Origin: a virus
Lineage: Duplodnaviria > Caudoviricetes
DNA length: 64,000 bases
Strand: one strand, 5' to 3'
Virus record (IMG/VR): IMGVR_UViG_2513237354_000022
Span: 18,379-82,378 of that record
Notes under the pieces: model-generated
Told to the model about the DNA's origin: nothing
Databases searched by the model: none
The model's input: the letters and a program-made list of their open reading frames with translations, nothing else
Shown: one piece after another, positions 6,200 to 44,990 of the stretch
Layout: each line of letters begins with the position of its first letter
Position numbering within the stretch: position 1 is the first letter of the stretch
Translations under genes and position numbers: made by a program

Positions 6200-7515
6200 C
6201 AGAAAGTCGTATCCAGAGAGATGGAGAAGGCAGGTTTCACGATGGGGAACTGCTTCACAATGTAATAACCACCAGCGTCGTTGGGATGATCGTTGCCGGA
6301 TTTTTTATCCGGCTCACCGTTATCACCCCATACCTGCTGTTCCAGCGACTCGGTGTAAACCGGGCAACGTTTCACGTTAACCTTATAGCGACGTTCGCCA
6401 TTGCCGTTGCAGAGCATGGCGTTCATGGCATTAATGCGATCCTTAACCGGCGGGTTAGCCTCATCAACAATGACATGAAAACCTGCCTGTCTGAGCTGGG
6501 CGATATCAGTGGTGCTGGCGTTACTCGATTTCCGCGAGTCGCCTGATGCATCCGGGTAAATATAGATTTCACGCACCTTACGATAATCGTCGCCATCACA
6601 GAGCCAGAAACGCTCTTTAATTATGCGGATCATATCCGGTGTATCGTAAGCATTGATGATTTCACTCACTGCGCGCGGCAGACCCAAGCGAAGTACGTGG
6701 ACGATACCTGCCATTTTCCCCACGTTGAAATCCATACCAATATAAAGTGGTTCGCCCGGCTGCTCTTCTTCTTCGCAGTTATTCAGTCTGCGATCAAACT
6801 GATGATAAATCGTGCCGCTGGTCAGGTTGGTGAAAAGCCCGCGCAGATACGCCTTAATCAGCTCAGACGGGTACGATTCCATCAGCGAGGGGATATAGTC
6901 CGGAGGGAGGTTTTTCTCGTTATCAAACGTCGAAGCCTGCACCAGCCCGTACAGGGTTGTCAGCGAGGGCTTGTTGCGTACAGCTTTTACAAATTGCTGA
7001 TAAACGAATTTAAATCCTTCGGGTGTGGTCGTAACGTCAATGCCGTTCCGCAGGCCTGGTACTTTATAACGCATGCGGGCAATGATTTTTCGCCAGGCTA
7101 ATTCCGCTTTTTTCGCGGGCATAACATCCAGCTCATCAATAAGCGCATTACCGATTTTGAAACCCACGATCGTCTGTGGTTTTTCCATCGATCGGCAAAT
7201 CGTCGTGCCGCGGTACTGCCTGCCGACGTAGAAGTGCACCTCTTTATTACTTTCATTGATTTCAACGCGCATTCCCCAGTCAAAGGCAACCTCCTCAACC
7301 GTCGGATAAAAAATGTCGCGGATCTGTGGATAAGTGGGTGCAAAATATCCCTGATTGATGCGGGGGTGCTCCCACATTTCTTTACAGATACCACCACATC
7401 CCACCCACGTTTTACCGGAGCCAAATCCGGCAACGTATGCCCTGAACTTGTGAGGCATGGCAAGAAATCGCGCCTGAGGAATATTAAGTGTCGGTGAGAT
7501 CCCCATCATCGTCAT
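6199..7515 (-). CDS. Terminase large subunit (prophage 1)
   Basis: Walker A AGFGSGKT, Walker B LIDELD, nuclease IGMDFN...DHPNDA. Confidence 0.92.
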   Translation of the reverse strand: MTMMGISPTLNIPQARFLAMPHKFRAYVAGFGSGKTWVGCGGICKEMWEHPRINQGYFAPTYPQIRDIFYPTVEEVAFDWGMRVEINESNKEVHFYVGRQYRGTTICRSMEKPQTIVGFKIGNALIDELDVMPAKKAELAWRKIIARMRYKVPGLRNGIDVTTTPEGFKFVYQQFVKAVRNKPSLTTLYGLVQASTFDNEKNLPPDYIPSLMESYPSELIKAYLRGLFTNLTSGTIYHQFDRRLNNCEEEEQPGEPLYIGMDFNVGKMAGIVHVLRLGLPRAVSEIINAYDTPDMIRIIKERFWLCDGDDYRKVREIYIYPDASGDSRKSSNASTTDIAQLRQAGFHVIVDEANPPVKDRINAMNAMLCNGNGERRYKVNVKRCPVYTESLEQQVWGDNGEPDKKSGNDHPNDAGGYYIVKQFPIVKPAFSISLDTTF

Positions 7516-8725
7516 TCCTTACGCGGGCATCCACGACGTTAATATTAATGGCCACTGGTACCGGCTCGCTGTCCTCCGGTTCTGAAGACATTTCCCTGCG
7601 CAGTTTTTCAACTTCAAGCTGACGCCGCTCTATTTCAATCTGCTGCAGGCGCTGAGCATATTCGCTCTCAGCTAAATAACTGATCCTAATACCGCTACAC
7701 TTTAGCCAGCCCATGTTTCCCCCGGGGAATGGGCTGACGGTATTCATAAAGTGATGGACCTTTTTCAACAGTTGCCACATTGAACTGCACTGGTGATTTC
7801 GGGTTATTGTCTCATGAAGCGCCTGCCACAACCGTTCGACATGATTGACCCACGGCGAGTAAATCGGCTGGTAAATGACCCTGAACTTTGGGTTTGCTTT
7901 CAGCCAGCGCAACGTTTCACGGCTTTTGTGGATGATGTAGTTATCTACAATGAGCGTAATCGTTTTTGCACGCCGGTATGTCGCCTTCAGATGTTTTAAC
8001 AGTCTGATAAATAAGGATGAACCTTTACTGTTTCCACCAACGTAGCTGACTTTTCCCGTACCGCTGTGCAGCGCACCGGCAAGATAGTACTTTTCATTCT
8101 GGCCCGGAGTGACAACTCGTTTTTGCTGCCCGCGTAACTGCCAGTCAGCACCGATTTTCGGGTTGAGATGAATATCCACTTCATCTTCGTAAAACACGGG
8201 GTTTTCCGCACTACATTTCGCCAGTGCTTCATGGATAGCGACCATTTTTTCTTCTTTGTGTGGGTCACGGATACGCAGTGTCGGCGCGGCTCTCCGCCAT
8301 ACCAGGCCGGCAGCAGGTAACCATCGCCGGATGGTTGAAGCATGTAGCGGACAACCGGTGATATCACGGATTTTTATCGCCAGAAGTTCGGTGCTCCAGC
8401 GGGAACGCTGATAACCAAAATCGCCGGGAGAATGCTTAACAAGCTCACGCAGCAATGCGCAAATATGTTCGAACGGCCAGCGCCTCCCGCGTCCTGACGG
8501 TAATGACTTCAGGCCTTCAGCACCAGACAGAGTGAACCAGTTAATCCAGCGACCAATCGATGAGCGGGCACAGCAGAGTGTTCTGGCAACATGACTGACG
8601 GTGTCACCACGATGCAGCATCAGCATGGCGGTGAGCCGCCGGGCGTGGTTTTTGTCCTTTGTTTTATGGATAGTTTTCTGCATCAGGCGTCGTTCGGTTC
8701 TGGGTATTGGTGCTATGATCGACAT
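7484..8725 (-). CDS. IS630 transposase, frameshifted at its 3' end and fused to the terS C-terminus
   Basis: Identical to the 343-aa copy 2 up to SPFPGG; T3 instead of T4 near 7716 removes the stop. Confidence 0.85.
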   Translation of the reverse strand: MSIIAPIPRTERRLMQKTIHKTKDKNHARRLTAMLMLHRGDTVSHVARTLCCARSSIGRWINWFTLSGAEGLKSLPSGRGRRWPFEHICALLRELVKHSPGDFGYQRSRWSTELLAIKIRDITGCPLHASTIRRWLPAAGLVWRRAAPTLRIRDPHKEEKMVAIHEALAKCSAENPVFYEDEVDIHLNPKIGADWQLRGQQKRVVTPGQNEKYYLAGALHSGTGKVSYVGGNSKGSSLFIRLLKHLKATYRRAKTITLIVDNYIIHKSRETLRWLKANPKFRVIYQPIYSPWVNHVERLWQALHETITRNHQCSSMWQLLKKVHHFMNTVSPFPGGNMGWLKCSGIRISYLAESEYAQRLQQIEIERRQLEVEKLRREMSSEPEDSEPVPVAININVVDARVRNDDDGDLTDT

Positions 8726-8825: not shown

Positions 8826-9708
8826 TAGCCCGAGACGCTTCATAACTGCCTCAAACATCCGCTCTCTGTTGATTGTGGATATTTCCACACCGCCCTTGGT
8901 AATTTTCGTACCGGCATAAGCAAGTAGCCCAACTGAAGACAGCTTTGTTGAGTCCTGCATGACTGCGCGGCCTATACCTTCACCGTTGCACCGTGGACAT
9001 TCAGGATTAGGATCGTGCGTGTGGTCGTAGCCGTACCCACCTGCATCCCGAGGCTCTTTTCGTTTCCGCTCAAGTGCCTCATAGCACTTCTCTTCAAACT
9101 CAACGGCATCACGCACTGGTACTGATGGCCAAAGCCCCAACAGTACCGACATGCGCCACGACGATATTGCGAGATTTCGTTGGCATCGAAGGTGGCAAGC
9201 TGCCAGGCCTTTTCCAGCACCTCATCAGCCGACCCAAGCGTGCGCATAATTGAGGCTTTTTGCTGCTGCGCAATTGACTGCGCAACTGAAGTTTTCTGAA
9301 GCAACTGATAGCCAATTTGTTCTGCGCTTTTTTTACTGTAGCCAGCGCGTAAAGCAGCCTGCGTGGCATTGCTATCTTTGAGATATTCCGCAACGAAAAG
9401 GCGTTGCTGGTCAGTAAGTCCATTACCATGGATAAGCTTTTCTGCGCATTTATCTGTATGCGCAGTGCGCAGTCTTTTCTGCGCATTTTTTTGCGTACTT
9501 TGCGCAGATGGCTTTTTTACGTAGCGACGCGCTGATACATAATTAAGCCCCTGCGCCTCACACCAGTCTTTCGGGGAGATACCGGTTTTTGCATGTGCGG
9601 ACAGGAACCGTTGCTGAAGTTCGCCCCAGTCCGGTTTTGCCATTGATTAACTCTCCGTTGAAGAAGGGTAATTCAGAATGCCTGCACTTTTTTTTAAGGG
9701 CACCTGCC

Positions 9709-9882
9709 ATGTTTAAAGTTCTGATAATCAGCTGCTGCCTGCTTATCGCAGGTTGCAGTGCGCTTTCTCATCAACGGAACGATCATACTGAGTATGAAAA
9801 CTCCCCGCCTGAATGTACTTCTCATGGCGATGAGCTGGACTGCTGCTGGGAGGTTCCTGACAACCTGCCCCCGGTCAATTAA
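9709..9882 (+). CDS. Small Cys-rich lipoprotein (moron, antisense to late genes)
   Basis: MFKVLIISCCLLIAGC: basic N-terminus, hydrophobic core and LIAG-C lipobox; 57 aa. Confidence 0.6.
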   Translation: MFKVLIISCCLLIAGCSALSHQRNDHTEYENSPPECTSHGDELDCCWEVPDNLPPVN

Positions 9883-10359: not shown

Positions 10360-10977
10360 TCATGCGCGACGCCGGAAGGCATAACTGCCTATACCCTCTC
10401 TGCCAAGTTCAGTTTCTGCGGTGTTGTGCTCAGTACAGTCAAAGACCCGGCCGCCAAACCAGCGCAGCAGGCCGTCATGAGTCCAGTACCAGATATGCTC
10501 CGTCTTACGGAAATGGCGTGATTTCAGGATAGCATCTCCATCGGCAAAAATCGGCACCGACACGAATACCCACTTTTCAGCTTTTGCTACGGCAACGTCC
10601 GGGCGGTCAATGTGCTCCACCGCGTCCCACAGGGAAAGTGCCGGGTAGCGTTCGGCGTACAAATCAGCCCACAGACCTCGCTGTTTCAGCCAATCAACCC
10701 CGGCGGGATTCACGTCATAGCCGCGGGTATTGGGCCGGGCCTCAACGAACTGGCCGGCACCGATGCCGACATCCACCAGCGGTCCATCATAATGGCGCGC
10801 CACCAGCTGAATGCGGGCCTGCGTCAACGCATGCCCCATCGGCGTGTCGGCCATCTGCTGATAGCGGGAAAAATAGTGTTCGTCATACGGGCGGTTTTGC
10901 GGTACCGGAAAATACCCCATGCCCAGCGCGGGCAGCCAGACCAGCCCGTGTTTCAGTTCGTCAAAGAACGATTCCAT
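10360..10977 (-). CDS. Class I SAM-dependent methyltransferase (cassette copy 1)
   Basis: LVDVGIGAGQF motif I, GYDVN, SLWDAVEHI; homologous to 41802-42416. Confidence 0.85.
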   Translation of the reverse strand: MESFFDELKHGLVWLPALGMGYFPVPQNRPYDEHYFSRYQQMADTPMGHALTQARIQLVARHYDGPLVDVGIGAGQFVEARPNTRGYDVNPAGVDWLKQRGLWADLYAERYPALSLWDAVEHIDRPDVAVAKAEKWVFVSVPIFADGDAILKSRHFRKTEHIWYWTHDGLLRWFGGRVFDCTEHNTAETELGREGIGSYAFRRRA

Positions 10978-11824
10978 GCAGCCACTCGTGAAGTTTGTCG
11001 TCAAAATTGCTTATGCGCCGGTCACAGTCGTGATCTGCCCGCATGCAGCGGCAGTAGTTATCGGGCATCGCCCAGCGGGTGTGGGATAAATCCATTGCCG
11101 GATCCGTTACAATTTCCGGCGCGTTATGCCCGCCACGACCGCCCGCTACCACAAACAGCGGTGTCTGATACGCGATAGCCATAGGAACCGAAAACCCTAC
11201 CGGAGTGACCACGCAGGCGGCACGCACGTAAAGGCTGCACAGCTGCGTCAGCGTCAGCTCGCCGTGGTGAAGTTTTAAATCAGCCGCGGGTTCGTCGCCT
11301 ATTATCCATTCCATGCCGGGAACGGTATCGGCCACGCTTACCACGAAAAAGTGCTGGCGCAGCCGCTGTGCGGCGCGTACCAGATACTCAGGATTGGGAT
11401 TACGTGAAGCGCTGGCCCACTCTGTGCGCACGGTTGAAGGCCGGATGACCGCAACGGATCTGTCTGTCGGTATGGACGGGTGCAGATCGTTAAACTGCGG
11501 CAGGTCAAACTGCAGCGGGCCGTTCACGCCAAACTGACGCCGGAACGCCGGGATAATGCCGCCAGCAGACAAATCAGTCGGGCCGTATCCGATGCGCTTT
11601 CTGACGCCACCGCGTGGTACCGGATGGAAGACATAGCGCGACCGGAGTTCGTTTTTCTCCTGGGTGCGCAGGTGCGTACCGCTGCGGACGCATTTCACAT
11701 TGAGGCCGCGATACAGTTCCGGCCAGCAGGTCCGCACATATGCGCCGGGGAAGTGGCGCAGGAACGGGCGCTGGTAGATGGAATCACCCAAGCCCAGCAT
11801 TCCTTCAAAATAATACGTTGTCAC
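10961..11824 (-). CDS. GT-B glycosyltransferase, GT9 (heptosyltransferase)-like (cassette copy 1)
   Basis: N-terminal GLGDSIYQRPF and C-terminal LTLTQLCSLYVRAACVVTPVGFSVPMAIAYQTPLFVV follow the GT9 pattern; homologous to 42322-43263. Confidence 0.65.
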   Translation of the reverse strand: MTTYYFEGMLGLGDSIYQRPFLRHFPGAYVRTCWPELYRGLNVKCVRSGTHLRTQEKNELRSRYVFHPVPRGGVRKRIGYGPTDLSAGGIIPAFRRQFGVNGPLQFDLPQFNDLHPSIPTDRSVAVIRPSTVRTEWASASRNPNPEYLVRAAQRLRQHFFVVSVADTVPGMEWIIGDEPAADLKLHHGELTLTQLCSLYVRAACVVTPVGFSVPMAIAYQTPLFVVAGGRGGHNAPEIVTDPAMDLSHTRWAMPDNYCRCMRADHDCDRRISNFDDKLHEWLHGIVL

Positions 11825-12357
11825 AGCACGTCCTCAGGTCGGGCTCGCGGAAAACAGGTCAGCACCGTGTGGCGCGAGCAGTTGATGATGCTGACCGACT
11901 GAAGGCTGTCCGCCAGACGCTGAAACTCACCCTGCCAGCGCCGGGTGCTTTCGGCGTCAGGATTTTTAAGCCCGTCAGGGTGATCCCCATGCCAGTGCGT
12001 GCCGTATTCCAGCGAGCAGTCGTAGCCCAGCAGGATGATTCGCTCAGCGCCCAGATGGACAGCAAGTTGAATGGCACGCTGGCCGGAGTTGAAAGAGTCG
12101 CTGTCGGACGGCCGGAACAGATTAATGTCGTAGCGCAGATGCGCCCGCCCGCTGACCGTCCAGCGTTGCGCATCTGTAGCGAGTGCGGCGTGGTGCCTGT
12201 CCCACCAACTACAGTCGGCAGCAAAGAGATAATGGCATGCGGGGATCAACTGCCAGCTGGAGTTAACGGCGATAACGGGGTGAACTGAGTTTACGGCAAG
12301 ATCACAGTCAGAGCGCGTCAGCGATGGACCGCTGGCAATGCAGATTACAGAATTCAT
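11821..12357 (-). CDS. WaaZ/Maf(DUF115)/CstII-fold putative glycosyltransferase (cassette copy 1)
   Basis: CIASGPSL, VIAVNSS, FAAD, NSGQRAIQLA, IILLGYD, HWH and IINCS motifs; homologous to 43257-43808. Confidence 0.6.
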   Translation of the reverse strand: MNSVICIASGPSLTRSDCDLAVNSVHPVIAVNSSWQLIPACHYLFAADCSWWDRHHAALATDAQRWTVSGRAHLRYDINLFRPSDSDSFNSGQRAIQLAVHLGAERIILLGYDCSLEYGTHWHGDHPDGLKNPDAESTRRWQGEFQRLADSLQSVSIINCSRHTVLTCFPRARPEDVL

Positions 12358-12690: not shown

Positions 12691-12867
12691 TTACTGACTG
12701 GTTTCCTCATCGTGGCCGAGAATATCCGCCAGTGCGGTATCCACCGCCGAGTCAATCTGGGTATCAAGGTCAGCTTTAATCTGAGTTTTCAATGCAGTAG
12801 TGACTGCATCGGATTTCAGCGCATTTTTTACCAGTGTGTCAGTGACGATATCTTTTACTTCTGCCAT
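12691..12867 (-). CDS. Small acidic phage protein
   Basis: MAEVKDIVTDTLVKNALKSDAV with RBS GGAG; resembles small hypothetical genes near lysis modules of enterobacterial prophages. Confidence 0.55.
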   Translation of the reverse strand: MAEVKDIVTDTLVKNALKSDAVTTALKTQIKADLDTQIDSAVDTALADILGHDEETSQ

Positions 12868-12986
12868 TTCAGGCTCCTTTTGAGTTTTGCGGCTGAACAG
12901 CCAGTCTTTTATCCACATGGTTATAGCCTGTGGTCACGATTGATATTGTCGAGGAATGTATAAAACGCAGATGTAGCAGAGCCAAT

Positions 12987-13011
12987 AAAAAAAGCGGCAC
13001 ATGGCCGCTTT
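12987..13011 (-). terminator. Rho-independent terminator after the DUF2778/partner pair
   Basis: AAAGCGGC-CATGT-GCCGCTTT followed by TTTT on the minus strand. Confidence 0.7.
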
Positions 13012-13035: not shown

Positions 13036-13374
13036 TCAATTACTGATCTCACTTTTACTGACCTGATAAACGCTTACGCCTGTTAGAGAACACTCATCAG
13101 TTGAAGCATCATTTTTAGTGATAATCTCATAAGATTTCCCAGCCTTGTCATAGAAAACAAAGTGATAAACCTCCGTCCATACGCCCTGCTTCTTCTTTTC
13201 CGCAGCAAGTAAATGTACTTTTGTTTTCGACTCATCCAACTGACTTATATCAACCTCTTTTTGATTCTTGAGCCATACTTCGGCCATGTTTTTTGGCCAG
13301 GATGAACATCCTGGAGCTGCAGCCAGAACACTAAGCGGAAACAAAGTTACTAAAGCCAGTAAAATCTTCTTCAT
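13036..13374 (-). CDS. Exported protein, putative periplasmic immunity partner
   Basis: Sec signal MKKILLALVTLFPLSVLA; two Cys (GCSSWP...ECS); 4-nt overlap with the DUF2778 gene. Confidence 0.65.
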   Translation of the reverse strand: MKKILLALVTLFPLSVLAAAPGCSSWPKNMAEVWLKNQKEVDISQLDESKTKVHLLAAEKKKQGVWTEVYHFVFYDKAGKSYEIITKNDASTDECSLTGVSVYQVSKSEISN

Positions 13375-13736
13375 TCAATCACCTCCAGATTTCTGTCGCC
13401 GCTGCTCCAGACAGAATGACGAACATTTAAAGGCATAATAATGCAGCCATTAGAAGCTTCACCGGGATGCGCAGTGCTGTCACCATGAATTAAGAAGCCG
13501 GAACGGCCATACATTATGTTTGATGCGGCAGGCGTCAGACGCATTGAATAGGCTCCTGTGTGAGGATGTTTGAATGGCGCTCCTATTGTGTATTTTCCTC
13601 TCGGCAGAGGACCAATATCGGCTGTTCCCTGCATAGTTGGGGCGTTCTTTCCTGCTCCTACTCCCGCATAGCCATTACCAATCAATTTGTTATTACGAAA
13701 AAGTTTTCCTGAGCTTTGATGATAAATCCAGGTCAT
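13371..13736 (-). CDS. DUF2778 / Tlde1-like L,D-transpeptidase-fold protein
   Basis: GPLPRGKY and RSGFLIHGD...ASNGCI: the His-x(13)-Cys catalytic region; no signal peptide. Confidence 0.8.
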   Translation of the reverse strand: MTWIYHQSSGKLFRNNKLIGNGYAGVGAGKNAPTMQGTADIGPLPRGKYTIGAPFKHPHTGAYSMRLTPAASNIMYGRSGFLIHGDSTAHPGEASNGCIIMPLNVRHSVWSSGDRNLEVIE

Positions 13737-13845: not shown

Positions 13846-14313
13846 TCAATCTCGATTGGTGACAATCTGTCTTATATAGTCCTGAAGATAGCTTATTTTT
13901 TGTTGGTCGCTGATGATGCCTGCTCGGATATCAAGAATGTTTTGTCGAGAATCTGAAGAGAATTCGACGGCGGCTGCATAGCCCAGGCTGCGGGTTGCTG
14001 ACGCTGAGCCGGTACCGGACACGGGGCATTTTGCGTGGACGTACATGCGGCGAGTACCATCGGCAAGCTGACGGCTAAGAGCATCATTCTGAGATTCGGC
14101 AGCACTGAGCGCCTCCGTGTGGGTTTTATCGAGTGCGGCCAGTTTCTGCTGGCGCTCCTGAATGTCGGTAATGGTGTCGAACTGTTGCCTCGTAATCTGA
14201 TATGCAGCACGATAATCCTTTCGCCAGGCGACGGCTTTATCGTGATAGTGGTCAGCGGCCCAGCCCAGAGAGAGAACAGCGACTGCCAGTGCAGCAATAA
14301 GGTATTTATTCAT
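13846..14313 (-). CDS. Rz-like i-spanin
   Basis: N-terminal TM, coiled coil and RRMYVHAKCP motif of the lambda Rz family. Confidence 0.85.
   Translation of the reverse strand: MNKYLIAALAVAVLSLGWAADHYHDKAVAWRKDYRAAYQITRQQFDTITDIQERQQKLAALDKTHTEALSAAESQNDALSRQLADGTRRMYVHAKCPVSGTGSASATRSLGYAAAVEFSSDSRQNILDIRAGIISDQQKISYLQDYIRQIVTNRD
13893..14087 (-). CDS. Rz1-like o-spanin lipoprotein embedded in Rz
   Basis: MMLLAVSLPMVLAAC lipobox; Pro-rich; alternate frame inside Rz. Confidence 0.75.
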   Translation of the reverse strand: MMLLAVSLPMVLAACTSTQNAPCPVPAQRQQPAAWAMQPPSNSLQILDKTFLISEQASSATNKK

Positions 14314-14930
14314 ACCTTGAGCGCCACCAGCGCAACCTGATATCTGGCTTTCCGATCCTCAAGGCCATTGGCACCGCCATTAATAATCTTCGTGATCGCC
14401 TCAATATCACCACCATGCTTCAGGCAACCCTTTGAGGCGTAAAACCATGCAGCCGAACGGGCGGCATACTCATCCTGTTCCAGCAATTGCGGAATTAACA
14501 GCAAATCGGCACCCAGACCAGCACCACAATCCCGGTAATTGTCGTGGCCGGTGATCTGTATCAGGCCACGGCCACGATAATTCCAGCCGTCATTTGATCC
14601 CGGATAACCGTTACCCATTCGGTTTGCATAGACAATATTTGCTATTGCCTGCTGGTTAGCTGCGTGTTCAGTGGTGCGTCCGTATTTCTGAGCGCTTTCT
14701 GCGTCGAAATATTTCCCAAACGTAGCCAGCAAACCATCAGCCGAATAATTCAGATTCTCGACAATGCGGGTGAAACCACCGGACTCATGCCCTACCTGAG
14801 CGATAAACTTTGCCTGATCGTCAGCGGAGGTAATGCCAAACTCAGTCATTGCCGCATCAATTGGCTGAAACCAACGCGCAGCTAATTCGGCGCTGATATT
14901 AGCCGCCTTCTGAAACTGTGATTTATTCAT
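14310..14930 (-). CDS. Endolysin, glycoside hydrolase family 19
   Basis: AQVGHESGGF, ENLNY, YRGRGLIQITG, INGGANGLEDR. Confidence 0.92.
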   Translation of the reverse strand: MNKSQFQKAANISAELAARWFQPIDAAMTEFGITSADDQAKFIAQVGHESGGFTRIVENLNYSADGLLATFGKYFDAESAQKYGRTTEHAANQQAIANIVYANRMGNGYPGSNDGWNYRGRGLIQITGHDNYRDCGAGLGADLLLIPQLLEQDEYAARSAAWFYASKGCLKHGGDIEAITKIINGGANGLEDRKARYQVALVALKV

Positions 14931-15253
14931 TCGCTTTTCTCTGTGCTGATGCCGGTACGCTTGGTAAATAACGCCACGGCACTATCACGCATTCGGTCAG
15001 CGCCAATAAAACCAATCATGCCGCCAACGAATGCGCCGGAATTTGCAGGAAGGCCCAAATATTCCAGAATCGCTGATACTGCTAACGCTGCAATTCCGCA
15101 TACTAACGCCCCGGTAGCTGTATAGATTTTGGGCTTTCCAGCCCTGATATCCATTAATGCCGAAATCCCTAAAGCCGTCAGCCCGGCATAAACCGACGGC
15201 AGGTATACAGCCAACCATTTCATTGTTTGCTCAATTATTCCGTGTTTTTCCAT
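14927..15253 (-). CDS. Holin, lambda family
   Basis: Start MEKHGII (RBS GAGG); multiple TM segments; GFIGAD motif; overlaps the endolysin start. Confidence 0.85.
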   Translation of the reverse strand: MEKHGIIEQTMKWLAVYLPSVYAGLTALGISALMDIRAGKPKIYTATGALVCGIAALAVSAILEYLGLPANSGAFVGGMIGFIGADRMRDSAVALFTKRTGISTEKSE

Positions 15254-15437
15254 AGTCACCTCTGGAACGGGGCGCCGTGTGAGAATAAAAAATCCCCGAA
15301 TATCCAGGAGCGGCAAAGGGGAAAGGCGTTTCACTAAATTGACCTGTTAGCGGCCTTAATATGAGAAAGCCCCTGCGAGTGCAGAGGCCTTAAAAAAATA
15401 AAACCCCACCGAAGTGAGGTTTCTTAAATAGTGGGGC

Positions 15438-15610
15438 GGCTTTGTTGAATAATAGGTAATCATTCTGTTTTGTCTGCACTGTTTTGGTAGAAAACGCTGA
15501 TGCCAGACAGAACACCGTCATACGCAAGCATGTAACGCATTGATTTTATGTTATCTGAAACAACCGTTTTCATAGTACCACAGCATAAAATCCATTTATT
15601 CAACAAAGCC
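15438..15610 (-). mobile_element. 173-bp MITE with IS903-type ends, copy 1
   Basis: Terminal IRs GGCTTTGTTGAATAA / TTATTCAACAAAGCC; reverse complement of 61825-61997 with one mismatch seen; no transposase. Confidence 0.88.
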
Positions 15611-15678: not shown

Positions 15679-16848
15679 TTAACCGATCTGCTTAACGTGC
15701 CAGAAAATTTTATCAGCGTAGAGCTCATAACCTTTACGCTGATCTTCCAGCCAGTCATGTTTGTTGTACACCGCCATTACCCCGCCAAGTTCGTGCCCCA
15801 ACATCTTTTCGGTGACATGGGGCAATATCCCTTCCTCTGACAGATTCGTTACCAGGGTGCGCCTGAAATCATGCGTACGCCATTCGGGAATATCGATTTT
15901 GCTTCTCAGTTTTCGCATGTACAGATTGCACGATGAGCGATCTATTGCTGTGTCCAGTTCCTGACCGGGAAACATAACCGGATTTTTCATTGCAAGCAGC
16001 CTTTCAACATAAGGTTGTATCTGTTCGAAAATGGGACGCCTGATGATGTTACCCATCTTCGAATGCTCTGCTGGCGTCGTCCAGATAAGATCATCCATGT
16101 TGAATTCAGCGGGGGTAGACAGCCGCAGTTCTGAAAGGCGGGCGCCCCAAAGCAACAACATCTGGTGAAGAATTTTATTAGAAGAAAAGACTTTATTATT
16201 TTCCAGCGCCAGCCAGATTTTCGCCAGTTCGTTATAGGTGAGAACGCGCTCGCCGGTATCAGGTTTTTTTCCGATATTTTTAACGCTCAGTTTAAGCACT
16301 TCACAGGAGGGAATAAGCTGGCGGCTGATGCACCAGTTCATGACTGATCGGAGTTGCAGAAGCAGTACCCTGGCTTTCTTCTTATTGGTCTGTTCCTGCT
16401 TATCGAAAAATTGCACCCAAAGCGACACAGGGATGTTTGCTACCGGCACATCCTTAAATTGTGTGTACATGGTGTTGTACACAACTGACTTGTACAGGAT
16501 GCGTGTGTTTTCCTTTAGCCCGGTAACGTACTTGTTCCACCACTCATCGAGGCAGTCTTGTAGCGTCAGTTCCCCGCTGCTGCCGACCAAATAAGTTTTG
16601 GGGTTAACCCCCTTCATGTACAATGCCCGCATTTCGCCGACCGCTACGCGAGCCTCTTTGAGAGACATAGCAGGATAGCGGCCAAGCGTGATGCGTACAG
16701 GCTTATTTTGCCAGCGGTAGCGATACTGAAAAGCGATGGTACCATTAGGCGTAATGCGCGCACTCAGGCCGTCAGCGTCGGTCACCTCTGCCGGGCCGCT
16801 GTAGGGCTTGCCGTTTATGCTGCGCAGTTTGGTATCGCTGAGGGCCAT
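15679..16848 (-). CDS. Tyrosine integrase (prophage 1)
   Basis: MALSDTKL arm-binding domain; RLSEL, HDFRRT, LGH...AVY catalytic residues. Confidence 0.93.
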   Translation of the reverse strand: MALSDTKLRSINGKPYSGPAEVTDADGLSARITPNGTIAFQYRYRWQNKPVRITLGRYPAMSLKEARVAVGEMRALYMKGVNPKTYLVGSSGELTLQDCLDEWWNKYVTGLKENTRILYKSVVYNTMYTQFKDVPVANIPVSLWVQFFDKQEQTNKKKARVLLLQLRSVMNWCISRQLIPSCEVLKLSVKNIGKKPDTGERVLTYNELAKIWLALENNKVFSSNKILHQMLLLWGARLSELRLSTPAEFNMDDLIWTTPAEHSKMGNIIRRPIFEQIQPYVERLLAMKNPVMFPGQELDTAIDRSSCNLYMRKLRSKIDIPEWRTHDFRRTLVTNLSEEGILPHVTEKMLGHELGGVMAVYNKHDWLEDQRKGYELYADKIFWHVKQIG

Positions 16849-17044
16849 CGTTATATTTCCTGTACACATCCGATAGCTGTCATTCTGTACTCAATGTGTA
16901 CGCAATGGCAAGTGAACGAAGTGATATTAAAGTGAAACACAGGCGGGCAAGTCGAAACAAAAAGGAACGTAAGACTTGAGAAAAACAGAGGGTTTGCGGT
17001 AGGATAGAAACACTCGCGAACTGTTCAAAACAGCACCGAACGAC

Positions 17045-40251: not shown

Positions 40252-40510
40252 CGGTTTGTCCTGCCCTGTTGTTCTCGAATGTCCTGATATCAGCCTTATC
40301 CCTGTTGCACTGCGCCAGCGCTGACAGCAGCGCAACATTCAGGTTAAGGCTTGCTCCCCACGTAAACGGGTCGGGTAAATCTGGCTGGGGTGTTTCATCC
40401 GTCAGGCTGGCTGGTAACGGAACTACCGGAACCGGCACGTAGACCGTCCGCGTAGTCGTGCAGCCGCTTAACTGCGCCAGAAGGCACAACACGAACAGCA
40501 CAATCATCAT
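40232..40510 (-). CDS. o-spanin lipoprotein (Rz1-like)
   Basis: MMIVLFVLCLLAQLSGC lipobox; Pro-rich; CNRDKADIR. Confidence 0.8.
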   Translation of the reverse strand: MMIVLFVLCLLAQLSGCTTTRTVYVPVPVVPLPASLTDETPQPDLPDPFTWGASLNLNVALLSALAQCNRDKADIRTFENNRAGQTDGTIKR

Positions 40511-40787
40511 CCGCAACAGCAGCCTTGATATCGTTCTCGGCTCTCTGTGACTCCAGTGCGATCTGCTGCTTGGCATGTTGATTTGTCTCCAGAATGATGT
40601 TCGTTATTGCTACGGTGCGCAGGACATTCGCGGTGATGGTCTCAGAGGAATCAGCGCGCTGTTCTGCATCGTCAGCGCGACGCTGTTCCTCCAGAAACTT
40701 TCCATGGTAGTGATCCGCTGACCAGACAAGACCGCCTGCAATACAGGCGATAAACGTCACAATGAGCACCCAATAACTCATTTTCAT
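40395..40787 (-). CDS. i-spanin (Rz-like)
   Basis: N-terminal TM plus coiled coil, overlapping the o-spanin. Confidence 0.8.
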   Translation of the reverse strand: MKMSYWVLIVTFIACIAGGLVWSADHYHGKFLEEQRRADDAEQRADSSETITANVLRTVAITNIILETNQHAKQQIALESQRAENDIKAAVADDDCAVRVVPSGAVKRLHDYADGLRAGSGSSVTSQPDG

Positions 40788-41398
40788 ACCAGCAGCGCCG
40801 CCCGCGCTTTGTTGTAGCGGATCTTGCGGTCATCAATGCCATTCAGGCCGCCGTTAATGATGCGCGTAACACGAGTAATATCGGCACCGTAGGCCATGCA
40901 ACCTTTGGATGTGAAGAACCAGGCGGCAGAGCGTGCTGCCTGAAGTTCCTGTTCGAGCTGTTCAGGTGAAGTAACGAGGTCTAACTTCAGCGCCGCCCCG
41001 CAGGTGCGATAATTGTCGAGGCCAGTGATTTGAATTAACCCTCTGCCGCGATATTTCCAGCCGTCGCATGGCGCTTTGTTACCCAGGCGGTTGCTATACA
41101 CCAGATTGGCGATGGCATCCTGGCGGGCTGCGTGTTCGGTTGTTCTGCCAAGCGCATCAGCCTGCTGCTGTGTGATCCTCTTTCCGAAGGTCGCCACCAG
41201 CGCAGATGGTGTGTAGTTCAAATTTTCTACTACAGCGCTAAAGCCGTCTGACTCATGACCTACCTGAGCGATGAACATGGCCTGATCCGCTGGCGCTGTA
41301 ATGCCGAATTCTTTCATCGCCGCATCCACTGGCTGAAACCAGCGCGCAGCTAACCCGGCGCTGATACCAGCCGCCATTTGAAATTGAGATTGATTCAT
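40784..41398 (-). CDS. Endolysin, glycoside hydrolase family 19
   Basis: AQVGHES, YRGRGLIQITG, INGGLNG; homologous to 14310-14930. Confidence 0.92.
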   Translation of the reverse strand: MNQSQFQMAAGISAGLAARWFQPVDAAMKEFGITAPADQAMFIAQVGHESDGFSAVVENLNYTPSALVATFGKRITQQQADALGRTTEHAARQDAIANLVYSNRLGNKAPCDGWKYRGRGLIQITGLDNYRTCGAALKLDLVTSPEQLEQELQAARSAAWFFTSKGCMAYGADITRVTRIINGGLNGIDDRKIRYNKARAALLV

Positions 41399-41727
41399 TT
41401 ATTTTCCTCAGTGCTGCCGACTCCGGCACGTCTGGCAACGATAGCGAGCGCCATGTCACGAAGTCTGTCCGCCCCAACAAACCCGACGAGCGCACCAACG
41501 AATGCCCCTGAATTAGCAGGCAACCCTAGGTATTCCAGCAATGCGGAAACAGCCAGCGCGAATATGCCGCAGATTAGCGCGCCAGTGGCGGTGTAGAGTT
41601 TCGGCTTCCCTGCGCGTATGTCGATAAGCGCTGAGATGCCCAGAGCGCATAACCCGGCGTAAACTGACGGCAGATATAGCGCGATCCATTTCATTGTTTG
41701 TTCGAAAATCCCGTGAGTGCTATTCAT
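41395..41727 (-). CDS. Holin, lambda family
   Basis: Multi-TM, GFVGAD; closely similar to 14927-15253. Confidence 0.87.
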   Translation of the reverse strand: MNSTHGIFEQTMKWIALYLPSVYAGLCALGISALIDIRAGKPKLYTATGALICGIFALAVSALLEYLGLPANSGAFVGALVGFVGADRLRDMALAIVARRAGVGSTEENK

Positions 41728-41801: not shown

Positions 41802-42416
41802 CTAAACGCGGCGGAAAGCGTACGAAGCGACGCCCTTACGCCCTAACTGGCATTCGATGGTGTTCTGTTCGGCGCATTCGAAGCCCTGCTCAGCAAACCA
41901 ACCCTTAATACCGTCGTCAGTGAAATACCAGATGTGCTCGTTCTTCCTGAAATGGTGCGAGCGAAGAATGTCTCCGGCATCGGTAAAAATGGGGATCGAC
42001 ACGAACACGTATTCACTGGCCTGCTGTACCGCCAGCTCCGGCTCGTCGATGTGCTCCAGTACATCCCACATCGTCAGCGCGCGCCACTGACTGGCGTAGA
42101 GGTCAGCGAATGCGCCCCGCTCGTTCAGCCAGGCAACGCCAGCAGGATTAACGTCAAACCCAAACGTTCCCGCTCGGGAAGAAACGAACTGACCGGCACC
42201 GATACCAACGTCCAGAACCGGTCCATGATAGTGACGTTCCACCAGCTCAATTCTGGACTGCGTTAATGCGCGCCCGGTTTCGGTATCAGCCAGCAGCTGA
42301 TATTTCGCAAAATACTGCTCGTCATACGGGCGAGATGCCGGAACCGAATAACGACCGATGCCCAGCTCCGGGAGGAATACCAACCCGCTGTTCAGTTCCT
42401 GATAAAACGACTTCAT
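41802..42416 (-). CDS. Class I SAM-dependent methyltransferase (cassette copy 2)
   Basis: VLDVGIGAGQF, GFDVN, TMWDVLEHI. Confidence 0.85.
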   Translation of the reverse strand: MKSFYQELNSGLVFLPELGIGRYSVPASRPYDEQYFAKYQLLADTETGRALTQSRIELVERHYHGPVLDVGIGAGQFVSSRAGTFGFDVNPAGVAWLNERGAFADLYASQWRALTMWDVLEHIDEPELAVQQASEYVFVSIPIFTDAGDILRSHHFRKNEHIWYFTDDGIKGWFAEQGFECAEQNTIECQLGRKGVASYAFRRV

Positions 42417-43263
42417 TCAGCCAGGCCTCGAATTTTGAATCAAAGTTGGAGATGCGTTTGTCACAATGGTGATCCCACGCTTCGCAGCGACAATAATTGT
42501 CCGGTATTGCCCAGCCAACGCGGGATAAATCCATCGCCGGATCGGTGACTATCTCGGGAGCGTTATGCCCGCCGCGCCCACCAGCGACAACGTAAATAGG
42601 TGTTTTGTACGCAATGGCAGCGGGCAGCGCCCAGCCGACAGGCGAAACCACGACAGCTGCATGCTCTACCAGGCGCATCAGCTCTTTGATATTGAGCTCG
42701 CCAGCGTGCATTTTCAGATCTGCTTCTGGTTCTTCACCCACCAGCCACTCTTCCCCGTCCTGCAAATCAGCAACGCTAATCACGCAGAAATGTTTCCGCA
42801 GGATTCTCGATGCGCGCAGGAGGTAATCGGGGTCAGGGTTTCGGGAGTCGCTACGCCATTCAGAACGAACCGTTGCCGGACGAATAACGGCGATCGGCTT
42901 TTGGTGCGTAAACTGCGCCGGTCCAAAGGATGGCAAATCAAGCGCTGCTGGCGTTACACCGAACTGACGGCGCATCGCATCGAATATTGAACCGCGCCGC
43001 AGATCATCCGGACCGTAAAATATTCGCTTCGTCTGGCGTGGTGATGGCGGCGGATAAAACTTTGCGGAGCTGCGGAACTCATTTTTTCGCTGCGTCCTTA
43101 GCGCGGTATCACTTCGGACAGCTTTTACTGGCAGGTCTTCGTAAAGCTCCGGCCATGCCGTCTTGATGAATGTCCCCGCAGGCAGCTGTTTGACGAAAGC
43201 GCGCTGGTAAATGGTGTCTCCCATTCCCAGCATGCCATCGATGTAAATAGGAGGATTCAGCAT
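42322..43263 (-). CDS. GT9-like glycosyltransferase (cassette copy 2)
   Basis: GMGDTIYQRAF; LNIKELMRLVEHAAVVVSPVGWALPAAIAYKTPIYVV; shared C-terminal Cys/His motif CRC...H.CD.RI. Confidence 0.65.
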   Translation of the reverse strand: MLNPPIYIDGMLGMGDTIYQRAFVKQLPAGTFIKTAWPELYEDLPVKAVRSDTALRTQRKNEFRSSAKFYPPPSPRQTKRIFYGPDDLRRGSIFDAMRRQFGVTPAALDLPSFGPAQFTHQKPIAVIRPATVRSEWRSDSRNPDPDYLLRASRILRKHFCVISVADLQDGEEWLVGEEPEADLKMHAGELNIKELMRLVEHAAVVVSPVGWALPAAIAYKTPIYVVAGGRGGHNAPEIVTDPAMDLSRVGWAIPDNYCRCEAWDHHCDKRISNFDSKFEAWLNEVVLSGTEQRVGIPPGAGHRSLFGSGISPV

Positions 43264-43808
43264 GTAACCTCGCTGATCGCCGCTTCAAGAGGTAGACGAC
43301 GAAAGCAATTAAGCGCCGTCTGGCGGCTGCTATTGATGATTTGGACGCTTCCACGCAGCTGCGCCGCAACCCGGGCAAACTCGCCATGCCAGCGCTTTAC
43401 GTTCGCCGCTGTCGGGTTATCGAGAACTGTATGATCGCCGTGCCAGTGGCTGCCGTTCGAGATTGAGCAATCGAAGCCCAGCAGAATGATGCGCTTTGCG
43501 CCCAGCCATTGAGCGAACAGGATCGCTCTCTGTCCCGAATTGAATGTGCCGCTAGTATCTGTCGGGAAGAGGTTCACGCCGTATCGGGTGTGTGCTCTCC
43601 GGTTACATGACCAGCGTTCGGGGCCATCAGGCAGCGCGGGAATGTTCACATCCCACCAGCGCAGATCGCCAGCGTAAATGTGGGTGCATTCCAGTATGGT
43701 TCGCCATGATGAATTAACCGCTATCACAGGAAACCCTGAGCGCGCAGCTATTTGACAGTCAGCGGGAGTAAGGGACGGACCAGAAGCGCAGATGATCGCC
43801 GTGTGCAT
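43257..43808 (-). CDS. WaaZ/Maf(DUF115)/CstII-fold putative glycosyltransferase (cassette copy 2)
   Basis: ICASGPSL, VIAVNSS, YAGD, NSGQRA, IILLGFD, HWH, IINSS. Confidence 0.6.
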   Translation of the reverse strand: MHTAIICASGPSLTPADCQIAARSGFPVIAVNSSWRTILECTHIYAGDLRWWDVNIPALPDGPERWSCNRRAHTRYGVNLFPTDTSGTFNSGQRAILFAQWLGAKRIILLGFDCSISNGSHWHGDHTVLDNPTAANVKRWHGEFARVAAQLRGSVQIINSSRQTALNCFRRLPLEAAISEVTC

Positions 43809-43838: not shown

Positions 43839-43868
43839 AAAAAAGCCCCTGCATTTCTGCAAGGGCTT
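43839..43868 (-). terminator. Late-leader terminator (tR'-like)
   Basis: AAGCCCTTGCA-GAAA-TGCAGGGGCTTTTTT on the minus strand. Confidence 0.75.
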
Positions 43869-43948: not shown

Positions 43949-43977
43949 AATTATGCAGTTTCAAAACTCGCTTTCAA
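43949..43977 (-). promoter_or_regulatory. Putative late promoter (pR'-like)
   Basis: TTGAAA-N17-ATAATT overlapping the end of the Q-like gene. Confidence 0.5.
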
Positions 43978-44634
43978 GTCTTTTTCGCAAGTTTTTGCAT
44001 TTTCGAAGCCTAATTCATCTTTTAACGTGAAGAAGACAGCAGAGTTGAACAATTCAATACACCAGCGCACACGGTCAATACATTGCTTTTCGGTCAGAAA
44101 CGGCGCGTAGTAATACTGCATCCATCGTGCCATGCCATTGATGGTTTTCCGCCACGTGTAATAGTCCTTCCCTATCTCATACACGGGATTCCCCGGCTTG
44201 AAGGACTTCAGGATGATAGCCTCCATGAATGCAGCTTCCTCCTGGTCTCCGGCATTGCCGATCAGGTCAGAAAGCGATTTCTTCGGCCAGATGATGGCTT
44301 TCGCCTGCTCAAACAACGCATCGCCGGTATAGCCAATTTTACGCAGACCAGACAGCACGGTAGCGATCCGCTCCTGCTGCTCGCCAGTCCAGCCGGTTAA
44401 TATCATTGACCACATACCACCGCCACCAGAAAGGTGCTCTGTCCCGCTGCCCCCGTACATGCCACCCCAGTGGTTCAGCAACGAACGAACCCAACGGCTT
44501 TGCGATGGTGTCAGTCGGCGATATTTCCCCAGGTAAGATCTGCGTGGAGCTGCTGCCAGCGTCACCCAGGCGTTTTGCGGGTTGGTACGCTCAACAGACG
44601 CTTTCTGGTAATTGTTAATGTCGTTGCGTGTCAT
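43951..44634 (-). CDS. Late antitermination protein Q-like
   Basis: Position after rusA and before a promoter, terminator and lysis genes; LTPSQSRWVRSLLNHWG...RVRWCIELF. Confidence 0.7.
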   Translation of the reverse strand: MTRNDINNYQKASVERTNPQNAWVTLAAAPRRSYLGKYRRLTPSQSRWVRSLLNHWGGMYGGSGTEHLSGGGGMWSMILTGWTGEQQERIATVLSGLRKIGYTGDALFEQAKAIIWPKKSLSDLIGNAGDQEEAAFMEAIILKSFKPGNPVYEIGKDYYTWRKTINGMARWMQYYYAPFLTEKQCIDRVRWCIELFNSAVFFTLKDELGFENAKTCEKDLKASFETA

Positions 44635-44990
44635 TCTGCATTCTCCTGGATAATGATCTGGCCTGTCTCTCCCCATCGTTTCGTTACCCTGCCGTCCCAT
44701 ATCCGACAGTCATCATCGAATATCGCATCCAGTAACGCTTTCTCCAGATTGTCCTTATCCGGCTTAGTCTGGTGAGGCTGTCCGTCATGCTGCTGACGCT
44801 TCTTCTTACTCCAGCTTTTCGGCATGGGCAGAACGAATGTTATGTGGTAACCGGATTCCGGGAGGGTTATACCAAGACGGCGCACCTGAGCTTTAAAGAA
44901 CCAGTAGGCGGAGGTTTCTGGCCTGCTGCGCCAGCGATCGCTTCGGGTCATGCGAGGCTTGGCGACAGGAGTGATATCGTAAATTTTCAT
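44631..44990 (-). CDS. rusA: RusA-family Holliday junction resolvase
   Basis: KPDKDNLEKALLDAIFDDD motif. Confidence 0.85.
   Translation of the reverse strand: MKIYDITPVAKPRMTRSDRWRSRPETSAYWFFKAQVRRLGITLPESGYHITFVLPMPKSWSKKKRQQHDGQPHQTKPDKDNLEKALLDAIFDDDCRIWDGRVTKRWGETGQIIIQENAE

Follow-up and report, generated by a model that had tools for sequence, protein, structure and literature searches.

Two sugar-transferase-like genes and a methyltransferase gene form a late cassette in phages of Gram-negative bacteria that may glycosylate virion proteins

The DNA analysed here (the window) is a stretch of 64,000 nucleotides, positions 18,379 to 82,378 of the IMG/VR provirus record IMGVR_UViG_2513237354_000022 (Duplodnaviria; Caudoviricetes). 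Two late minus-strand sugar-transferase-like genes and a methyltransferase gene overlap one another at 10360-12357 (copy 1, prophage 1), and the trio is repeated in the same order at 41802-43808 (copy 2, prophage 2); both spans agree with those of a preliminary description made from the sequence. The features are listed in Table 1. In copy 1, genes 1 and 2 overlap by 4 nt (GTGA) and genes 2 and 3 by 17 nt; in copy 2, genes 2 and 3 overlap by 95 nt and the final ~20 residues of the gene 2 model are of low confidence. The longest reading frame of copy 1 gene 1 begins at 12399, and the 178-residue start used here is the ATG that matches the homologues. An alternative TTG start for copy 1 gene 3 lies at 11004.

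Table 1. Cassette genes and neighbouring features in the window.
Feature	Position	Strand	Details
Gene 1, copy 1: minimal Maf/CstII/WaaZ-like (MptE-like, DUF115) transferase	11821..12357	-	178 aa; phrog_4603, E 2.7e-57
Gene 2, copy 1: GT9-fold TibC-like glycosyltransferase	10961..11824	-	287 aa; phrog_6804, E 2.7e-97
Gene 3, copy 1: class I SAM-dependent methyltransferase	10360..10977	-	205 aa; phrog_6564, E 5.5e-82; Methyltransf_23
Gene 1, copy 2	43257..43808	-	183 aa; PF01973; AF2 model
Gene 2, copy 2	42322..43263	-	313 aa; AF2 model
Gene 3, copy 2	41802..42416	-	204 aa; Methyltransf_23, E 9.6e-11; phrog_6564
Q-like antiterminator, upstream of copy 2	44700..43951	-	phrog_753
Late promoter-like site between Q and copy 2 gene 1	43977..43950	-	from sequence
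Strong terminator-like hairpin between Q and copy 2 gene 1	43868..43843	-	from sequence
Holin, endolysin and Rz-like spanin, directly 3' of copy 2	40395..41727	-	
Late promoter-like site and terminator of prophage 1, followed by holin, endolysin and Rz, all 5' of copy 1	13846..15476	-	promoter-like site and terminator at 15476..15400
DUF826 / phrog_311 small protein, directly 5' of copy 1	12691..12918	-	

The copies, judged earlier to be roughly half identical, share 55% (gene 1), 59% (gene 2) and 61% (gene 3) of their residues. At synonymous sites the divergence has reached or nearly reached saturation, and the copies are therefore not the product of a recent duplication. Comparison of copy 1 with close relatives gave dN/dS values of 0.22, 0.12 and 0.09 for genes 1, 2 and 3 (overall range 0.06-0.22), and all three genes are under purifying selection. 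The genes are real: besides showing this selection, they fall into the phage protein families phrog_4603, phrog_6804 and phrog_6564, respectively. All six proteins are soluble and free of signal peptides, as had been noted, and no membrane segment was found in them: no 19-residue window reached 1.6 on the Kyte-Doolittle scale, at which the holin and lipoprotein controls exceeded 2.1.

The TerS, TerL, portal and capsid-region proteins of prophage 1 had no BLASTP match at E<0.01 in prophage 2, in line with the unrelated head modules first reported; the holins (75%) and endolysins (66%) are related. Although the Q/early region of prophage 1 is gone and its TerS and TerL genes are separated by a DDE_3-type transposase gene, copy 1 is still intact in this decayed element, as was originally remarked. 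Ahead of copy 2, the promoter-like site and the terminator-like hairpin, which ends only 35 nt from the start of gene 1, are arranged much as in lambda pR'-tR'. The position of these sites directly after Q, together with the solubility of the proteins, suggests that the trio is a single late-expressed cytoplasmic unit; the search for promoter-like sites turned up no further one. Lysogenic conversion from a promoter of the cassette's own was considered and rejected; no promoter-like site was found between the terminator and copy 2 gene 1. The DUF826 / phrog_311 small protein also adjoins the cassette in several related loci.

The copy 2 product of gene 1 scored 34.8 bits against PF01973 (cut-off, 34.6) and the copy 1 product 26.8 bits, below the cut-off; a precomputed match to this family is present in most gene 1 homologues. 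The AF2 model of the copy 2 protein (pLDDT 89) found its best fold match in the flagellin glycosyltransferase Maf (PDB 5mu5; Z 14.7, 173 of 183 residues aligned), over Maf residues 272-514 only, and also matched CstI, a sialyltransferase of family GT42 (Z 10.4), so that a sialyltransferase-like core fold is present and the glycosyltransferase fold claimed earlier for this gene stands. Against WaaZ profiles, hhalign returned a probability of 70% (E 3.9e-5, 85 columns), and the two families have in common, in their consensus lines, the order of motifs that had been called WaaZ-like: SGP[ST] ... AVN[GS]S ... D.R[FW] ... AIQ.A..L...RII..G.D. A pterin or thiamin pyrophosphokinase was rejected as the identity of gene 1. 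The pterin enzyme, named in the preliminary description as the result that would tell against a transferase, reached only Z 9.3 (HPPK) and thiamin pyrophosphokinase Z 8, both well short of the 14.7 of Maf; the SGPS at the N-terminus and the A-I-Q...R-I-I-L-G-x-D motif agree with WaaZ. Both pyrophosphokinase folds belong to the same superfamily as the Maf/CstI-type fold.

On the copy 2 AF2 model (pLDDT 92.8), the gene 2 protein is a GT-B fold with GT9 topology and a four-stranded N-lobe. Its fold matches were TibC (Z 18.5), the GT9 structure 3tov (17.8), WaaF (17.3) and WaaC (15.9), with other GT-B proteins at 11 or below, and the GT9-like reading first proposed is thus upheld at the level of the fold. 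The TibC superposition (rmsd 3.0 A over 257 aligned residues; Foldseek E 1.5e-10) spans TibC residues 92-395 only. TibC and the LPS heptosyltransferases differ by only about one Z unit, too little for the fold to discriminate between a protein and a lipid acceptor. By sequence, no similarity to TibC was detectable; neither the two copies nor eight homologues scored above the gathering score of PF01075 (CAZy GT9; best E 0.069, Eowyn), and hhalign against the E. coli GT9s gave 48.7% probability. Near the N-terminus runs a G-x-G-D motif (G15-D16 invariant in 40 sequences, G10-D11 in 14 distant ones). The G12-D13 pair, invariant in the E. coli GT9s, is a candidate counterpart of this G-D after the first strand, as judged from the sequences; the position of WaaC D261 is occupied by P-V-G. 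Directly before the last helix, a CxC-x4-H-x-C (Cys3His) knuckle occurs family-wide and is a candidate metal site.

Gene 3, described from the outset as a SAM methyltransferase, is on its sequence a class I enzyme of this kind, with a match to Methyltransf_23. The cassette genes are listed among 'viral defense proteins', from annotation only, in one publication (PMC10449497), which was the sole mention of them found in the literature; no functional study of or experiment on any cassette member was found. An anti-restriction DNA methylase, as that listing would have it, was rejected for gene 3, which matches no DNA methylase family. Solved structures searched with single sequences and with profiles gave nothing usable for the cassette proteins, NCBIfam named none of them, E. 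coli complete genomes had no DNA match at the megablast level, and a protein atlas search returned only the family's own viral clusters. The original designation as a new system has to be narrowed: the genes are already represented in PHROG families and in the cultured phages D3, PAJU2, Eowyn and Mulvp2.

Phage sequences with the trio number well above one thousand, and it extends across many Gram-negative classes. Co-occurrence, for which a survey had been called for, is near-absolute: the three genes stand together in 80 of 81 viral loci, with their order kept, between Q or lysis genes and terminase, and their location is in every case a late or morphogenetic operon. A D3-like order (MCP, small ORF, gene 1, adaptor, head closure, sometimes KilA, genes 2 and 3, tail completion) was found in 66 of 80 D3-like loci, and another order (head closure, then genes 1, 2 and 3) in 10 of these D3-like loci. 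Prophages of Bordetella, Alcanivorax, Methylophaga and Cellvibrio have MCP, genes 1 to 3 and adaptor; genes 2 and 3 follow the neck genes in a T4-like cyanophage and lie between connector and tail genes in an uncultured phage. The homologues in cultured phages are orf6.5/orf7, orf12 and orf13 of D3, ORF010-012 of PAJU2, gp005-003 of Klebsiella phage Eowyn, and genes 58-59 with the unannotated gene 1 of Enterobacter phage Mulvp2. These four phages have the same three families at 40-57% identity and in the same order, within head-neck-tail modules, whereas the window copies adjoin Q or lysis genes. The PAJU2 homologue of gene 1 (48% identical) was deposited as a 'structural protein'.

Natural fusions of genes 1 and 2 were found in at least 13 clusters; gene 2 also occurs in tandem with itself and fused to LicD, to a methyltransferase and to a canonical GT9 domain. 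The gene 1-gene 2 fusions and the gene 2 tandems and fusions suggest a functional linkage. A distant gene 2-gene 3 fusion in a Phycisphaeraceae genome has a GT25-domain protein as its neighbour and a giant RHS-repeat protein downstream, in a context that does not seem phage-like.

Gene 1 is free-standing in both window prophages; in D3-type phages it lies apart from genes 2 and 3 and is apparently made by frameshifting. In 66 of 77 D3-like loci it overlaps an upstream frame containing the -1 slippery sequence CCCAAAG, and 65 of those 66 have no ATG ahead of the gene 1 catalytic motif, whereas 74 of 75 enterobacterial loci have the ATG and no slippery site. The slip site falls at residue 51-54 of a small post-capsid protein, whose zero-frame tail beyond it is Ser/Ala/Pro-rich. 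From its reading frames, D3-type gene 1 appears to be expressed, through a -1 frameshift, as a fusion with the N-terminal domain of the small protein encoded just after the capsid.

From the folds, motifs, purifying selection, co-occurrence and late or morphogenetic placement described above, we infer a donor for each transferase, an order of steps, the methylation of a sugar and an acceptor. The trio would be a cytoplasmic glycan-building unit, made late and decorating a protein of the phage particle. The gene 2 product, acting like the protein O-heptosyltransferase TibC, would attach a sugar, most plausibly the heptose of host ADP-heptose, to a protein or to a growing glycan; the gene 1 product would add a CMP-activated ulosonic acid, most plausibly Kdo in these hosts; and the gene 3 product would O-methylate the result. 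That the cassette glycosylates virion proteins with a small methylated glycan is given about an even chance here. A more specific version, in which many phages of Gram-negative bacteria, D3 included, use the portable cassette to cover one of their particle proteins in a short methylated glycan made from LPS-core precursors of the host (heptose, Kdo), and in which the -1 frameshift of D3-type phages brings gene 1 to the small head-region protein whose Ser-rich alternative tail may be the acceptor, is put forward tentatively and is doubtful as a whole.

The preliminary description had allowed for both a virion protein and LPS as the acceptor; the evidence leans to a virion protein, without settling the choice. 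For a virion protein speak the best fold matches of the two transferase models, each of which is a protein glycosyltransferase (TibC and Maf), the putative late expression signals, the predicted solubility of the proteins and their position among head, neck and tail genes, together with the frameshift overlap of D3-type gene 1, the label of the PAJU2 homologue and the dN/dS values of 0.06-0.22. Against it, the cassette moves between unrelated head modules, a host acceptor would be simpler than one specific virion protein, and no Ser/Thr-rich tail stood out on the structural proteins of the window's two prophages. A rival possibility is that, while the phage grows lytically, the cassette acts at the cytoplasmic face of the inner membrane and modifies the inner core of LPS or some other envelope glycolipid, adding heptose or Kdo and a methyl group and, for example, keeping progeny off cell debris or vesicles. 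The closest named relatives by profile are LPS-core enzymes (WaaZ, which has PF01973 in common with gene 1, at 70%; the E. coli GT9s at 49%, by hhalign), WaaF and WaaC score close to TibC as folds, and a conserved host acceptor would fit both the unrelated heads and the many Gram-negative classes. Expression confined to the late phase, from a position past the post-Q terminator or among head genes, would however leave scant time for new LPS to reach the outer membrane and replace its pool; a lipid acceptor is hard to square with the apparent joining of gene 1 to a small protein of the head region; and the gene 2 N-lobe is pared down to four strands, a feature of TibC but not of WaaC or WaaF. 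We know of no LPS-conversion phage with such genes inside its head-completion cluster. LPS modification is held to be unlikely, with a minor but appreciable chance.

A late action on a host protein or small molecule, by host-factor glycosylation or nucleotide-sugar consumption in the service of takeover or counter-defence, is given a small chance. Its support is the 'viral defense proteins' annotation (PMC10449497) and the non-phage-like setting of the Phycisphaeraceae fusion. The cassette genes are late and embedded in morphogenesis operons, and their strict co-inheritance and tandem glycosyltransferase fusions point to glycan building rather than to a single blocking modification. Counter-defence genes are usually early. 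Very improbable, in our estimate, is a hypermodification in which sugars are attached to phage DNA ahead of its packaging. All phages share DNA as an acceptor, and late DNA modification exists (Mu mom). Phage glycosyltransferases that place Kdo and mono- or di-heptose on 5-hydroxymethylcytosine, some of them encoded near structural genes, have also been reported (bioRxiv 10.1101/2023.12.21.572611). Such a pathway requires a C5-cytosine methyltransferase and a 5mYOX/TET enzyme, or a thymidylate-synthase-like enzyme, whereas no C5-methyltransferase or thymidylate-synthase homologue was found in the 82-kb provirus record, D3, PAJU2, Mulvp2 or BUCT-ZZ01, and gene 3 has no DNA methylase family among its matches. 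PF00145 (C5-cytosine DNA methyltransferase) was absent from the provirus record and five complete phage genomes, with positive controls; PF12851 (5mYOX/TET) matched neither the phages nor the control genomes. The jumbo phage Eowyn is the only one of these genomes with a ThyA homologue, which is far from the cassette.

Were virion glycosylation by the cassette true, temperate phages of Enterobacteriaceae, Pseudomonas, Bordetella and other hosts would commonly carry a sugar coat. This would matter for phage therapy (through immune clearance and stability), for the way phages adsorb to LPS and for the origin of protein glycosyltransferases such as TibC and Maf. The documented examples of particle glycosylation by phage enzymes are so far those of mycobacteriophages, in which it affects antibody recognition. 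The function is directly testable, because the cultured phages D3 and PAJU2, with the standard host PAO1, carry the genes.

Among known systems, virion O-glycosylation of mycobacteriophages, in which phage glycosyltransferases decorate capsid and tail proteins, offers a precedent (Freeman et al., 2023, Cell Host Microbe, cited in PMC12582341 and PMC11256854). The hosts of those phages differ from those of the cassette phages. The mycobacteriophage enzymes reportedly belong to other families than those of the cassette, and theirs is, to our knowledge, the only documented case of the proposed mechanism. Phage DNA glycosylation clusters also combine Kdo/heptose glycosyltransferases with a methyltransferase (bioRxiv 10.1101/2023.12.21.572611), but they depend on two enzymes, a C5-cytosine DNA methyltransferase and a 5mYOX dioxygenase, of which the first was absent from the provirus record and the five complete phage genomes searched.

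The relation to bacterial enzymes is closer. The bacterial autotransporter heptosyltransferases TibC and Aah (BAHT; PDB 4rap, 4rb4; PMC4358343) and the gene 2 protein have in common a GT9-type GT-B fold and a four-stranded N-lobe (described for TibC in PMC4358343). Candidate parallels are a Cys cluster of metal-binding type that precedes the C-terminal helix and an Asp close to where the catalytic domain starts. D16 of gene 2 is the candidate equivalent of the conserved G-D Asp of WaaC (D13) and TibC (D110). The iron finger of TibC has four Cys across ~30 residues of the C-lobe, whereas gene 2 has the short CxC-x4-H-x-C at a comparable place; the N-terminal beta-barrel of TibC (residues 1-97) has no counterpart in gene 2, which begins at the catalytic domain. 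TibC and Aah genes adjoin their autotransporter substrate, whereas the neighbours of the cassette are Q, lysis, terminase or head genes and include no autotransporter. Maf and gene 1 both match PF01973 (MptE-like), the window copies of gene 1 with borderline scores; Maf has 632 residues with flanking N- and C-terminal domains, and gene 1 (178-183 aa) is the ~180-residue core only. With E. coli WaaZ, a Kdo III transferase, gene 1 has both PF01973 and the motif order in common, and with the GT9 LPS heptosyltransferases WaaC, WaaF and WaaQ gene 2 has a candidate G-D motif after the first strand in common; unlike the waa genes, the cassette is phage-borne, late and outside any waa cluster.

The trio occurs twice in the window, once in each of the two tandem prophages within the 82-kb IMG/VR provirus record, part of which is the window. 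The preliminary description had placed three overlapping genes at 10360-12357 and their recurrence, in the same order and roughly half identical, at 41802-43808; coordinates and order were borne out. The copy 1 overlaps are 4 nt (GTGA) between gene 1 and gene 2 and 17 nt between gene 2 and gene 3. Protein identity between the copies was 55% (gene 1), 59% (gene 2) and 61% (gene 3), and synonymous sites were saturated or nearly so; the copies were thus brought by two different phages, and a recent duplication is excluded. Values of dN/dS against close relatives from viral contigs were 0.06-0.22 for each trio gene in both lineages. As also described before, no hydrophobic segment or signal peptide was found in any of the six proteins, all three copy 1 genes are full length despite the decay of prophage 1, and the head modules are unrelated, with no BLASTP similarity between their proteins. 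The holins are 75% and the endolysins 66% identical. The trio is real and beyond chance. In copy 2, but not in copy 1, gene 2 is extended at the C-terminus by about 26 residues (low-confidence in the model), and this extension shares 95 nt (42322-42416) with the beginning of gene 3.

Positions of the trio genes and neighbouring features in the window
Feature	Position	Strand	Remark
Transposase gene, DDE_3-type (IS630-like)	7484-8725	minus	prophage 1, splits TerS from TerL
Small ORF	9589-9882	plus	opposite strand, between copy 1 and TerS
Gene 3, copy 1	10977..10360	minus	
Gene 2, copy 1	11824..10961	minus	
Gene 1, copy 1	12357..11821	minus	
Terminator-like hairpin	13011..12991	minus	after the Tlde1 pair
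Tlde1-type gene pair	13036-13736	minus	between Rz and copy 1
Phage integrase gene	15679-16869	minus	flanks prophage junction
Phage integrase gene	17280-18437	plus	flanks prophage junction
Trio, copy 2	43808..41802	minus	gene order identical to copy 1
Strong terminator-like hairpin	43868..43843	minus	directly upstream of copy 2 gene 1
Promoter-like site	43977..43950	minus	directly upstream of copy 2 gene 1
Q-like antiterminator	44700..43951	minus	upstream of copy 2

The earlier fold and family assignments (Maf/WaaZ-like, GT9-like and SAM methyltransferase) held. Gene 1 matched PF01973 (MptE-like/DUF115) weakly and phrog_4603 strongly. An AlphaFold model of its product, built from 36 homologues (pLDDT 89), had its best match in the central domain of Maf, a flagellin glycosyltransferase (Z 14.7, 173 of 183 residues aligned), followed by SteA (10.8), the sialyltransferase CstI (10.4) and archaeal HPPK (9.3). 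The argument from WaaZ motifs was reasonable, since PF01973 is also present in E. coli WaaZ (Kdo III transferase in NCBI naming), the motif order is common to gene 1 and the WaaZ family consensus lines, and a profile-profile comparison covering the C-terminal 85 columns gave a probability of 70%; the argument was not strong. The homologue in the cultured phage PAJU2 (ORF010, 4447-5016, 48% identical) bears the depositors' label 'structural protein' and the RefSeq name alpha-2,3-sialyltransferase.

Gene 2 had no Pfam or NCBIfam match. Its predicted model (pLDDT 92.8) clearly has the GT9 fold, with Z-scores of 18.5 for TibC, 17.8 for a Veillonella GT9, 17.3 for WaaF and 15.9 for WaaC, and at most 11 for all other GT-B enzymes. 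TibC was also far in front in Foldseek (E 1.5e-10 vs 3e-6). The N-lobe of the model is four-stranded, as in TibC (PMC4358343); a CxC-x4-H-x-C cluster, kept even in members of 29-35% identity, lies just ahead of the last helix, at a place comparable to that of the TibC iron finger, and an invariant G-x-G-D motif after the first strand parallels G12-D13 of the E. coli GT9 enzymes. The N-terminal beta-barrel of TibC is absent. The family is compact (869 clusters in a search of 1.8 billion representatives). Gene 3 encodes a class I SAM methyltransferase (Methyltransf_23, phrog_6564) of a mostly viral family.

Copy 2 is flanked by the Q-like antiterminator on one side and by holin-endolysin-Rz genes on the other. 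No further promoter-like site was found between the promoter-like site and gene 1 and, because the layout of this site and the hairpin is that of lambda pR'-tR', expression of copy 2 is probably late and Q-dependent. Copy 1 follows the lysis genes, the Tlde1-type pair and a DUF826 gene, and precedes the small terminase gene. In prophage 1 an integrase gene abuts the late promoter region, so that the promoter-like site and holin come directly after the integrase; Q and the early genes are therefore gone. The TerS match of this prophage ends at profile position 184 of 261. The Tlde1-type pair, which resembles a moron of the toxin-immunity type, encodes first a 121-aa protein (Tlde1 domain, L,D-transpeptidase fold) and then one of 112 aa whose signal peptide is of the lipoprotein type. 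Ten identical bases, TTTTATTGGC, come after the hairpin upstream of each cassette region and may mark a common boundary of a mobile block. The small ORF beside copy 1 matched no family; within it, an internal Met precedes a lipobox-like LIAGC.

IMG/VR was scanned twice, with more than 560 loci each time. In the enterobacterial set, 80 of 81 loci had the complete trio in the same order, and the remaining one is truncated by a contig end. The trio lay either between Q and the lysis genes or between the lysis genes and the terminase, together with terminase and portal genes of at least three different types. In the D3-like Pseudomonas set, genes for head completion lie interspersed with those of the trio: 66 of 80 loci read MCP, small ORF, gene 1, adaptor, head closure, (KilA), gene 2, gene 3, tail completion, and 10 read head closure, gene 1, gene 2, gene 3. 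The order MCP, gene 1, gene 2, gene 3, adaptor was found in prophages of Bordetella, Castellaniella, Alcanivorax, Methylophaga and Cellvibrio, and more distant matches in genomes of Alphaproteobacteria, Gemmatimonadota and Planctomycetota. The Klebsiella jumbo phage Eowyn carries all three genes. Gene 2 and gene 3 are the core and gene 1 a frequent third member, since the pair occurs without gene 1 in a T4-like cyanophage (after neck genes) and in an uncultured phage (between connector and tail genes). A functional link between the genes is given by natural fusions: gene 1-gene 2 fusions form at least 13 clusters, gene 2 tandems exist, and gene 2 is also fused to LicD, another methyltransferase or a canonical GT9 domain, the last of which is split by an intein containing a LAGLIDADG endonuclease. 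The LicD, methyltransferase and GT9 fusions and the tandem copies are represented by proteins P0247, P0291, P0312, P0263, P0296 and P0373. In a Bradyrhizobium locus (L121, 9850-12870) gene 2-gene 3 lies upstream of a 1007-aa collagen-repeat protein.

In phage D3 the gene 1 frame (5762-6409) is open from 5762; it takes in an N-terminal ASGPSL motif ahead of the annotated start, where an ATG is lacking, and orf7 is annotated too short. The frame overlaps orf6.5, in whose own frame the heptamer CCCAAAG, a -1 slippery site, occurs at 5837, suggesting that orf6.5 and orf7 form a -1 frameshift fusion. The heptamer was present in the overlapping frame at 66 of 77 D3-like loci, 65 of them without ATG. 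At PAJU2-type loci (gene 1 after the head-closure gene) and at 74 of 75 enterobacterial loci, the type of the window included, ATG was present and the slippery site absent. Cellvibrio and Methylophaga prophages have other heptamers at the equivalent place (AAAAAAC, AAAGGGC). In all cases the slip is located at residue 51-54 of the small protein; past it the zero-frame tail is Ser/Ala/Pro-rich, and the protein belongs to PHROGs without known function. The N-terminal domain would then be common to two products, of which one ends in a Ser-rich tail and the other in the enzyme. The frameshift would tie gene 1 to a head-region protein in such phages; it does not extend to the window, where gene 1 is free-standing.

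Donors and acceptor of the trio enzymes we infer. Glycosylation of a virion protein fits best, because of the late expression and cytoplasmic location, the constant residence of the trio in morphogenetic operons, the best structural matches of gene 1 and gene 2 (Maf and TibC, both of which glycosylate proteins), the putative frameshift tether in D3-type phages and the depositors' label on the PAJU2 homologue. LPS modification stays in play as a rival because of two observations against this reading: the cassette moves between unrelated head modules, and by sequence it is closest to LPS-core enzymes. Another, less likely candidate target is a host protein or metabolite; one distant gene 2-gene 3 fusion adjoins an RHS-repeat gene in a bacterial chromosome (a Phycisphaeraceae genome, L127, 2922-12852, where a GT25-domain protein precedes the fusion and the giant RHS-repeat protein follows it).

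DNA modification was checked as well, since phages are reported to encode enzymes that attach Kdo and heptose to 5hmC (bioRxiv 10.1101/2023.12.21.572611). The required C5-methyltransferase or thymidylate-synthase-type enzymes are absent from the provirus record and from four of the five complete cassette-bearing phage genomes; a TET search gave no match, but its controls gave none either and it was uninformative. No functional study of the trio was found in the literature, and a Pseudomonas prophage survey (PMC10449497) lists the genes by annotation only. With virion-protein glycosylation as the favoured reading, the cassette would represent a widespread and uncharacterised variant of phage-encoded glycosylation.
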